From the NCBI GenBank assembly GCA_036781645.1, contig DAIQAO010000002.1, positions 1-64,000 on the forward strand: 64,000 nucleotides of DNA, written 5' to 3'. A program made the position numbers. Below are positions 36,001 through 39,000 of this stretch, piece after piece. The stretch comes from Dissulfurispiraceae bacterium. Lineage in GTDB: Bacteria > Nitrospirota > Thermodesulfovibrionia > Thermodesulfovibrionales > Dissulfurispiraceae. Every line of letters starts with the position of its first letter. The first letter of the stretch is position 1.

Positions 36001-39000
36001 ACGGTGATGTATTGCTTAGAATCAACGAATACAATATAGTCAATCTCGAATCAGCACTTCAGGCATTTTATGCTATGAGGGGTCTCGACAGGATTCAGCT
36101 TGATATTGTGAGGGGCGGCAGTAGAATTACTATGACTTATCTTATAAAGTGAGGATTTTTGTATGTTTAAAAAAATCGTTATTTTGTCTTTGATTACCTT
36201 TTTATGGGTTTTATGTCCCTTTGCTCTTTATGATGCTATCGCAAAACAATCAGTTAAGACGGAATCCTCCTCTGAGCAAAAGGTTACATTTAATTTTGTT
36301 GACGTTGAACTACCTGCTATTACCAAATTTATCAGCGAGATTACAAAAAAGAACTTTATTTATGACGAAAGAGTTAAAGGCAAGGTTACTATAATAACGC
36401 CTTCTAAACTGAGCATTGAGGACGCCTTTAATCTTTTCACATCTGTTCTGGAATTAAAAGGTTTCAGCCTTATACCATCAGGCGTTGACGCTTATAAGAT
36501 AGTCCCTTCGTCTGAAGTCAGGCAAAAGAGTGTTGGTATTGCTAAAGATAAGCAACCTGTTAACGAGAGCTTTATAGCCCGACTGATATCCCTCTCAAAC
36601 ATCTCCTCAGAAGACGCCCTTAAATTTATACAACCTCTTATATCCAAAGATGGGCATGTCTCTTCCTTTGGTCCTGGCAATCTTATTCTTGTCATTGATT
36701 CAGGACTTAATATCGAAAAGATTATCTCTATTTTAGATACAATAGACCAACCAATAACTAAAGACTCACCAGAACTTGTATTTCTCAAGCATTCCTCTGC
36801 AGATGCTGTAGCAAAAATCTTGAATGAGGGATTGCGCAAGAGCCGCCCCGTAGGAGCCCCACAGATTGGCATTGAAGAGCCGCGTGCCATAGCTGACCAG
36901 AGATTAAATGCGGTTGTTCTTTTTGGCGACCGTGGGGCGAGACAATCAATGAAGTCTCTTATATCACTTCTCGATATAAAAGCGCCCGACGCCCAGGGCA
37001 GGATAAATATATATTTTCTCGAAAACGCCAGCGCAGCCGAACTGGAAAAAGTGCTCGACGGCATCCTGAAAGGTTCTCAACCCCAGCGTCAACAGGCAGC
37101 AGGCACCGCCCCTGCAGCTTTGCCTTTTGAAGCAGTTGGAGCTATAACAATCACCGCTGATAAAGCAACTAATTCCCTTATTATTGTCGCCTCTCCTGCT
37201 GACTACGAGAACCTCTCCCAGATCATAAAACAGCTTGACAGAAAGCGCCGTCAGGTATATGTTGAGGCAATGATTGTTGAGGCATCAATAGACAAGCTGA
37301 GGGAGCTTGGCGCCAAATGGCGCCTTACAGCAAGGCACAAGGAAGAACCCGTTATGATAGGAGGCTTCGGTTCTGTAAGTTCAGGTTCGGTGCAAAATAT
37401 CATTCAGGGGCTTGAAGGTATTACGCTTGGCGGTTTAGGCAATTTTATCAGGGATATTCCAATAACAATTATTGATGAAAAAGGAAACATCACTTCACAA
37501 AATATCACAATTCCAGGATTTGCCGCTCTCTTCAGTCTCAATGATTTCAGGGATGCCGTAAATGTCCTCTCGATACCTCAAATATTGACATCAGACAACA
37601 AAGAAGCTGAGATAGTAGTAGGTGAAAATGTCCCTTTCATCTCAAAAAGGGAGCGAGATTTAACAACAACTAACACCGTCCTGAGTTCTATCGAGAGAAA
37701 GGATGTAGGCATTACACTAAAGATTACACCCCAGATTACTGAGGGTGATTTCGTGAAACTGGATATATATCAGGAGATTTCATCCCTGAAGCAGGTTTCA
37801 GAAAATGTGCTCATTAATGTTGGTCCAACGACAACGAAACGCTCAACAAAGACCACCGTATTTGCAAAGGACGGGCAGACTGTAGTTATAGGCGGTTTAA
37901 TGCAGGAAAGAGATGAAACCAGTCTGAATAAGATGCCTATATTAGGGGATATACCGCTTATTGGATTAGCATTCAGGAATGAGTCAGTATCAAAGAAGAA
38001 AACAAACCTGCTCGTATTCCTTACACCACACATCGTCAAAGAACCAGAAACTATTGCATCAATTACCTCGCAAAAACAAAAGGAGTTTGGGATGGCTGAG
38101 AACAGGTTTGCAGAAAACGAACTTCTCGTTAAATTCAGGGAAGGCATTGATGACGAAACAGCAAGAAAGATAATCTCCTCTCAGGGAGCTTCTATCATTA
38201 GATTTATTGATGGCATAAGGATATATCACATAAAGCTCCGATCCGGCCATGATGTAAAGGAGGCTGTGCAAGAATTCGGCAGTCTGCCCGAAGTAGAATA
38301 TGCCGAGCCTAATTATAAGGTCAAAGTAAAGTAACCCGTTGGAAACCTTATGTTGTGGGAAGCTAAACTTCTGGTGGATTAATTAAAGCCTAAACTGCCG
38401 GGACAAAGACACCTGCGGTATCCACCGCAGGTGTCTTTTTAAGTTTTAAAAGGTTAAGAACTTTTCATCTATGGAGGTGAGAGGGTTTTAGGGGCGGCTT
38501 TCCCGGGAGTTGGGTCTTTTTCAAGCCCCGTAAGAAGCGTGCTGAACATAATCCTCAGGTCATTGGGATTTATGCTTGAAGCAAGGGCTTCATCTCTGGT
38601 TATTATACCGTCTTTAACATAATCGAAAAGGTGTTGGTTAAGAGATTGCATTTTATAAAGCTTTTTAGATTCGACTATAATTTTATCTATTTCATCTAAC
38701 CTATCTTCGACTATCATTTTTTTAATAGTAGGGGTATTAAGCATTATTTCCATAGCCGCAACCCTTCCTGAACCATCAGCCTTTACGATTAGTTTCTGGG
38801 CAATAACAGCCCTTAAGGTCATAGCTGTCCTCACCCTGATATACTGTTGGTCTTCAAGCGGAAAGGCGTCTATTATTCTGTTTATTGATTGTTTTGCATA
38901 TGTTGTATGAAGTGTGCTGAAGACGAGATGCCCGGTTTCAGACGCCCTCAGCGCCATGTTGATGGTCTCGTTATCCCTCATCTCGCCTATGAGAATCACA

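Follow-up and report, generated by a model that had tools for sequence, protein, structure and literature searches.

What does a subtilase propeptide do at the end of a type II secretion system (T2SS) secretin? The question is raised by a stretch of 64,000 nucleotides from a Dissulfurispiraceae bacterium (the window; GCA_036781645.1, contig DAIQAO010000002.1, positions 1 to 64,000), in which the chain of the secretin GspD closes with an I9 domain, a subtilase-propeptide-type domain of family PF22148. The survey's finding was that the gate may hold a built-in propeptide that docks, chaperones or inhibits subtilase cargo on its way through.

A GspD secretin with a C-terminal I9 domain

The gspD product is GspD by TIGR02517 (515 bits, cut-off 351). 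Pfam again matched Secretin (residues 465-626) followed by PF22148 (residues 639-717, E 1.6e-16, 60.9 bits against a cut-off of 21), as the survey had described. The stop codon follows K723, and Pfam found no S8 domain in the chain. The locus is laid out as follows:

34165-34851, - strand: Crp/Fnr regulator, divergent, upstream of gspC-gspD
35280..36152, + strand: gspC (T2SSC and PDZ), 10 bp 5' of gspD; PF11356 E 2.9e-7; NF041515 GspC_delta 136.6 bits, below the cut-off of 150
36163..38334, + strand: gspD, secretin with C-terminal I9 domain, 723 aa; ORF, Pfam, TIGR02517
36289..36501, + strand: N0 domain, residues 43-113; PF21305 E 5e-23
37555..38040, + strand: secretin core, residues 465-626; PF00263 E 1e-49
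38044..38097, + strand: retained first S-domain helix (α11-equivalent), residues 628-645; alignment with solved GspDs (5wq8, 5zdh) and an AF2 helix at 628-645
38101..38331, + strand: I9/PF22148 subtilase-propeptide-type domain, residues 647-723; Pfam, AF2, structural matches and complex model
38469..40691, - strand: two PilT/PilU-family ATPase genes, context only; TIGR01420 over the cut-off, TIGR02533 far under it

In its N0 domain, N domains, secretin core and first S-domain helix, and in the gspC-N operon of its relatives, the protein resembles GspD, PulD, EpsD and ExeD. It belongs to a gspC-N set, with gspC adjacent, gspE-N apart on contig C54 and the operon contiguous in relatives. The survey had reported T2SSE beside genes with PF22148. 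In the window, the neighbors are PilT/PilU-family ATPases on the strand opposite to gspD (TIGR01420, 449 and 469 bits), but the claim holds for relatives: 26 of their 33 fused loci have gspE directly 3' of gspD. The separation of gspC-gspD from gspE-N is shared by the source genome and its closest relatives, and the pilT/pilU genes face gspC-gspD. Many fused GspDs (L014, L018, L019, L022, L023 and others) have two Secretin_N stretches rather than three, and so a shorter periplasmic part.

Where in the secretin does the I9 domain sit? The survey had it in place of the S-domain, which is not replaced as a whole. Residues 628-645 correspond to the first S-domain helix of solved GspDs, and therefore, judged by alignment, the I9 domain takes the place of the pilotin-binding helix alone, with helix α11 kept. 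By homology, this would put it in the periplasm outside the barrel and off the cargo path, and the idea of a propeptide in the gate that acts on cargo during passage is not supported. The full-length AF2 model (pLDDT 61, pTM 0.33), whose structural matches are secretins only, is too weak to place the domain relative to the barrel. GspD differs from the pilotin secretins (PulS/OutS, AspS/GspS-beta) in that the pilotin-binding helix (α12, PMC6532946) is replaced by a folded I9 domain of 77 residues. Neither that helix nor a cognate pilotin, the two marks of a pilotin-dependent secretin, was found. The pilotin families PF09691 and PF16549 had no match in the source genome, which is 99.98% complete and may encode a pilotin of another family. 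Two further placements were considered and dropped. An extracellular secretin C-terminus has been reported for type IV pilus secretins and, in the accessible part of PMC4453517, was undetected for two type II secretins. Free I9 lipoproteins as a new kind of pilotin were set aside because the loci read adjoin subtilases and not gspD; around the unfused gspD genes of two genomes (G027, G133), no I9 ORF was present in the 10-16 kb read.

The secretin variant with a C-terminal I9 domain is real and class-wide. As in the survey, PF22148 and PF00263 occur together in 120 of the 120 listed GspD homologs, and the homologs point to Nitrospirota, class Thermodesulfovibrionia. A query spanning the junction matched 113 of 188 class genomes that are at least 96% complete. 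We read the domain in 111 of them, leaving out one genome where the domain match is absent (G316) and one where the gene is split over contig ends (G337), and counting second copies once (G287, G306); one counted gene has an upstream stop (G270). All 16 fusions in a 151-genome sample of the phylum fall inside the class, and in another phylum the junction was matched in 3 of 251 genomes. Close GspDs that lack the I9 domain occur in full or partial operons (G027, G133), and a tandem I9 pair is found in the GspD of G417 (L243:3190-6000), where a SPOR-like domain follows, and in P0128 and P0129. A genome of the same genus without a fused-gspD match carries a propeptide-bearing subtilase with internal stops (G100:C87:543-1715). 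Our literature search, which covered mostly open papers without supplements, returned no report of a secretin-I9 fusion, as had the survey's own.

Fold, contact residues and a modeled partner

The I9 domain modeled alone (AF2, pLDDT 88) has four strands and two helices. Its best structural matches are subtilase prodomains (1spb_P, 3cnq_P, 1scj_B), with Foldseek E-values of just ~3e-3 and RRM-like folds following at Z 7.7. Further Z scores were 9.7 for 9fid_D, 9.3 for 3bgo_P, 8.9 for 3whi_B and 7.7 for the inhibitor POIA1 (1v5i_B), compared with 7.7 for the best RRM. A sequence search of the PDB with the domain alone gave one chance match. The domain is 40.8% identical over 76 residues to the propeptide of a subtilase encoded on contig C26 of the same genome. 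It shares sequence family and fold with N-terminal subtilase prodomains (PF22148; fervidolysin 1r6v, BPN' 1spb, Tk-subtilisin), but unlike them has no catalytic domain behind it.

Two short elements at the chain end bear on function:

38305..38313, + strand: E715-P716-N717; E and N probably correspond to Glu69/Asp71, the helix caps in the prodomain of subtilisin BPN'
38314..38331, + strand: six-residue tail, P6-P1, with V720 as P4 and the C-terminus as P1; from sequence, the register of PMC6993865 (accessible part) and the modeled interface

The survey's statement that GspD stops six residues after EPN is borne out by the sequence. Is this where a propeptide would be cut? In true propeptides, 8-9 residues separate EPN from the PND motif in 68 of 72 matches. 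We take the mature enzyme to begin about two residues before PND (the thermitase rule), which, with this spacing, places the cut near EPN+6. Among the 120 homologs, 110 end 6-9 residues past EP[ND], 47 of them at exactly six, so the survey's pattern stands at a count other than the 97 it gave. In the accessible part of PMC6993865, Glu69/Asp71 of the BPN' prodomain and Glu146/Asn148 of SUB1-ProM cap two surface helices of the enzyme, the propeptide tail occupies S4-S1, inhibition is possible without the tail, and the register runs from Glu209 to P4 Val214 and P1 Asp217. By this register, E715 and N717 are likely the caps, V720 P4 and K723 P1.

These positions are conserved. E715 and P716 are invariant across 81 homologs, weighted conservation over 110 GspD copies is 94% for E715 and 90% for N/D717, and P4 is I, M, V or L in 76 of 90 copies. 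The 92 copies with an intact E-x-N/D pair end exactly at P1 (35), 1-3 residues later (24), earlier (2) or further on (31). Since these last 31 extend at least 10 residues past EPN, and 18 of them more than 17, not every copy has its free C-terminus at P1. The survey also reported extra tails, some with SPOR. None of the top 120 homologs has a tail of more than 12 residues, but among more distant copies 7 of 8 long-tailed ones tested reach the Pfam SPOR cut-off.

We modeled the I9 domain together with the C26 subtilase's catalytic domain. The ipSAE was 0.92 in three of three runs, compared with 0.10 for the best of three controls; custom alignments were used, and the ipSAE mark admits 116 of 157 solved complexes along with 2 of 215 mismatched pairs. 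The runs had at least 98% of their contacts in common, and partner pLDDT was at least 91. The modeled interface comprises the I9 sheet face, both caps, the tail and the enzyme residues D184, H223 and S394. Because propeptide-subtilase complexes of this kind have already been solved, the model shows likeness and not binding. Judged by sequence and model, the domain has the traits of stand-alone I9 inhibitors: E-x-N/D caps, a hydrophobic P4 and an active-site tail. In fold, caps, P4 and subtilase gene linkage, it resembles MEROPS I9 inhibitors and mimics such as POIA1, yeast IB2, Arabidopsis SPI-1, Plasmodium SUB1-ProM and TgMIC5. Unlike the small, eukaryotic I9 inhibitors covered in the accessible part of PMC6993865, it belongs to a bacterium and hangs on a 15-mer pore as a tethered domain, and its inhibitory action is predicted.

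Is the modeled contact face under selection in GspD? With column classes assigned by hand, the 23 interface columns of GspD copies have a mean entropy of 2.09 compared with 2.41 for the other surface (p 0.14), not a significant difference; the same comparison gave p 0.0006 for propeptides and p 0.005 for free copies. Core columns, also hand-assigned, have an entropy of 1.29 in GspD, 1.67 in free copies and 2.08 in propeptides. Conservation of E710, a residue beyond the modeled interface, reaches 92% in GspD copies and 20% in propeptides.

Loss of the caps can be set beside loss of a possible partner. Where the E-x-N/D pair is intact, 77 of 92 genomes encode another PF22148 protein; where it is broken, 7 of 19 do (raw Fisher 7.5e-5). 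The motifs of 19 genomes were set by hand, and partner status came from match counts, set by hand for G253 and G254. Fifteen intact copies lack another PF22148 and seven decayed copies have one. After correction for kinship within the class, five independent pairs remained, and the sign test was not significant. With families as strata, 5-7 of nine showed a more propeptide-like interface in the presence of a partner, again not significantly. Outside the class, the six copies in G156, G158, G159, G160, G585 and G597, which may share origins, read EPV, EPV, EPV, ERI, KPV and EPH: the E-x-N/D pair is gone from all six, and in these genomes of unstated completeness another PF22148 is found in none and S8 is absent from five. 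Within the class, no S8 was found in at least 18 of the 111 genomes that keep the fold.

Subtilases and free-standing I9 proteins

The source genome has three PF22148 matches, GspD and two subtilases, and all three genes sit on different contigs. Both subtilases that the survey listed with the same propeptide family were recovered:

G000:C26:521-2560: subtilase with PF22148 propeptide, lipobox-like start and two fn3 domains
G000:C1:74090-75906: subtilase split between two frames at a G run, through assembly error or slippage

By eye, the C26 subtilase ends in a Gly-rich Cys tag, a membrane segment and a basic end. Its double anchor, a lipobox-like motif and a C-terminal membrane tag, recurs in relatives. 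The tag matched none of the NCBIfam CTERM models, and related subtilases carry CFI-box-CTERM.

The subtilases are probably T2SS cargo, as operon linkage and the tagged cargo of Vibrio and Myxococcus suggest (bioRxiv 10.1101/2023.06.07.544157 and PMC13393428, accessible parts). In at least 20 genomes, 17 of them from one family, an S8 gene and the fused gspD are no more than 12 kb apart. Of four such loci read, two have S8 between gspF and gspG (G130 and G148) and two have it at either end of the operon, both before gspC and after gspN (G294 and G269); in G269 the S8 ORF overlaps gspN by four bases. Among class genomes, S8 is present in 93 of 111 fused and 31 of 77 other genomes; many unfused genomes appear to lack this T2SS entirely, so this excess may reflect linkage of T2SS and cargo only. 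A T2SS of the fused type was found in none of the 10 members of family f5. The subtilases share with CTERM-sorted T2SS cargo (GlyGly-CTERM VesB/VesC of Vibrio cholerae, MYXO-CTERM, and Synerg-CTERM with its own T2SS variant) the protease nature, the C-terminal membrane tag and the link to T2SS; the accessible parts of the papers on these systems describe no inhibitor domain on the secretin.

How common are I9 domains without a protease attached? A profile of 29 GspD I9 domains, run against 1.84 billion representatives, matched mostly small proteins. By rule-based sorting, the 149 new top matches comprise 45 free proteins with a signal-peptide-like start, 35 with a lipobox-like motif and 5 with neither, along with 22 true propeptides, 17 GspDs, 16 fragments, 6 subtilases with a second, C-terminal I9 and 3 others. 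Some of the matches sorted as free might be cut subtilase genes; the nine read in DNA have their own stop codon, and eight of the nine lie directly upstream of a subtilase gene. A homolog search from one free I9 gave just six close relatives. I9 genes lie directly 5' of subtilases at L233:2789-3223 and 6725-7144, L234:5104-5463, L235:5041-5397 and L237:5636-6022, and likewise at L047:5266-5625, L048:5663-6046 and L053:9887-10285. At L047, a free I9 gene and a subtilase are followed by a weak GspC-like gene. The pairing of a subtilase gene with a gene for a small I9 protein, exported or a lipoprotein, looks like a widespread protease-plus-inhibitor cassette, 80 of the 149 matches being of this free, exported kind, and our literature search, mostly of open papers without supplements, returned no paper on free bacterial I9 proteins beside subtilases. 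In the six subtilases with two copies (P0131, P0147, P0149, P0160, P0235 and P0249), the second I9 stands behind a CFI-box-CTERM tag, Pfam-checked in two; the segment before it resembles a signal-peptide end, and this I9 may be released from the same chain. Thus one I9 module occurs in three free forms, each linked to subtilases.

In a fast tree of 143 domains and 77 columns, which has many open forks and supports grouping but not origin, a GspD core of 20 copies (support 95) joins free and subtilase-tail copies (89), and a separate group (84) holds 38 of 45 propeptides. By sequence, then, GspD I9 domains group more with free, inhibitor-like copies than with true propeptides. A self-cleaving secretin-I9-S8 precursor was rejected as the origin on weak evidence, the triple fusion being absent among 22 longer matches. 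Also rejected as I9 domains were faint PF22148 matches in family f5 (7-18 bits), in anti-sigma-like ORFs of 200-210 aa. At L240:2956-9932, L241:2754-12723 and L242:2600-3755, a sigma-factor-like gene precedes an anti-sigma-like ORF with a C-terminus that is faintly I9-like by eye, and at two such loci an S8 protein without an N-terminal propeptide match lies a few kb downstream.

Possible roles of the domain

What part of the survey's proposal is left? A built-in propeptide that handles subtilase cargo is supported by the I9 fold, the kept contact residues, modeled docking at the active site and operon-tied subtilases. A folding chaperone seems unnecessary as far as seen, since the examined subtilases have their own propeptide. 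We lean, at somewhat less than even odds, toward a tethered inhibitor that would bind subtilases of the same cell in the periplasm, outside the pore. The subtilases, with their N-terminal lipobox, own propeptide and Cys-containing C-terminal tag, would be exported as T2SS cargo. A subtilase that cuts off its own, separately anchored propeptide would become active in the periplasm, and a ring of about 15 I9 domains could mop it up near the outer membrane and shield the secretin. Once the partner subtilase was lost, the caps would decay and the fold would stay. The protease VesC is toxic in T2SS mutants (PMC13393428, accessible part), which gives a reason for a guard inhibitor, and stand-alone propeptide-like inhibitors exist as precedent (PMC6993865, accessible part). 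Several observations speak against this reading or against binding as the sole role: the docking score may owe to propeptide-subtilase structures already solved, the GspD interface is not clearly more conserved than other surface while E710 outside it is, the link between cap loss and partner loss loses significance once kinship is corrected for, some intact copies run well past P1, 17 of the 20 cases of a nearby S8 come from one family, gspD and both subtilases of the source genome are on different contigs, and the fold persists in genomes in which no subtilase was found.

The domain might instead, in line with a rival that the survey itself named, have been captured from a free I9 gene and now stand in for the pilotin-bound helix as a structural or assembly module that folds by itself and packs against the barrel, its neighbors or a non-protease partner, with a SPOR tether in some lineages. 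We regard this as possible, though on the doubtful side. It fits the position of the I9 domain where pilotins bind, the two pilotin families missing from a nearly complete genome, the SPOR tails and a fold that persists without S8 both in the class and in five of six genomes outside it. It also fits the GspD-conserved E710 and a core more conserved in GspD than in propeptides; however, free copies too exceed propeptides in this respect, so that a conserved core characterizes the free subfamily. Moreover, close GspDs without the domain sit in the G027 and G133 operons, and the I9 domain is therefore dispensable for assembly there. A structural role also leaves unexplained the 90-94% retention of the caps, the kept tail length and the loss of the caps in six of six copies outside the class. 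That an old fusion with a neighboring I9 gene left the domain behind, harmless and without present function, seems to us quite improbable: free I9 genes and subtilases do adjoin T2SS genes (as at L047), and several genera have decayed copies, but the domain is kept in 111 of 188 genomes and many families with invariant positions, and it is duplicated in G417, P0128 and P0129.

Could the ring be a dock for cargo rather than a guard? Here, the I9 domains would take the mature subtilase from its own propeptide, keep it silent and concentrate it for export. The modeled complex and the caps speak for this as much as for the tethered inhibitor, as do subtilases inside or coupled to the operon, to the point of the overlap with gspN in G269, and two I9 domains in one GspD (G417). 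We nevertheless consider a dock unlikely. According to PMC6882859, the secretin reaches about 20 nm into the periplasm, with GspC bound to N0 at the base, whereas the I9 domain is placed close to the outer membrane and outside the barrel. There is no apparent release mechanism, and the affinity typical of I9 inhibitors, in the low nM range (PMC6993865, accessible part), counts against release. The boldest version, to which we likewise give little credence, is that the I9 ring is a cargo-specific receptor that exchanges propeptides, holds the enzyme silent in the periplasm and hands it over to the export path, as part of a wider free-I9 "immunity" system of lipoproteins, protease tails and secretin tails.

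The tethered inhibitor that we favor addresses two questions: how T2SS deal with proteases that are folded, and potentially active, while in the periplasm, and how cargo is recognized. If it is true, the secretin carries a well-defined module that binds one specific class of cargo through a modeled interface with named residues, and the matter is addressable with two small proteins. Should the I9 domain turn out to be purely structural, it would remain a new type of secretin C-terminus that a bacterial class has fixed. The finding also points to a large family of free bacterial I9 proteins beside subtilase genes.
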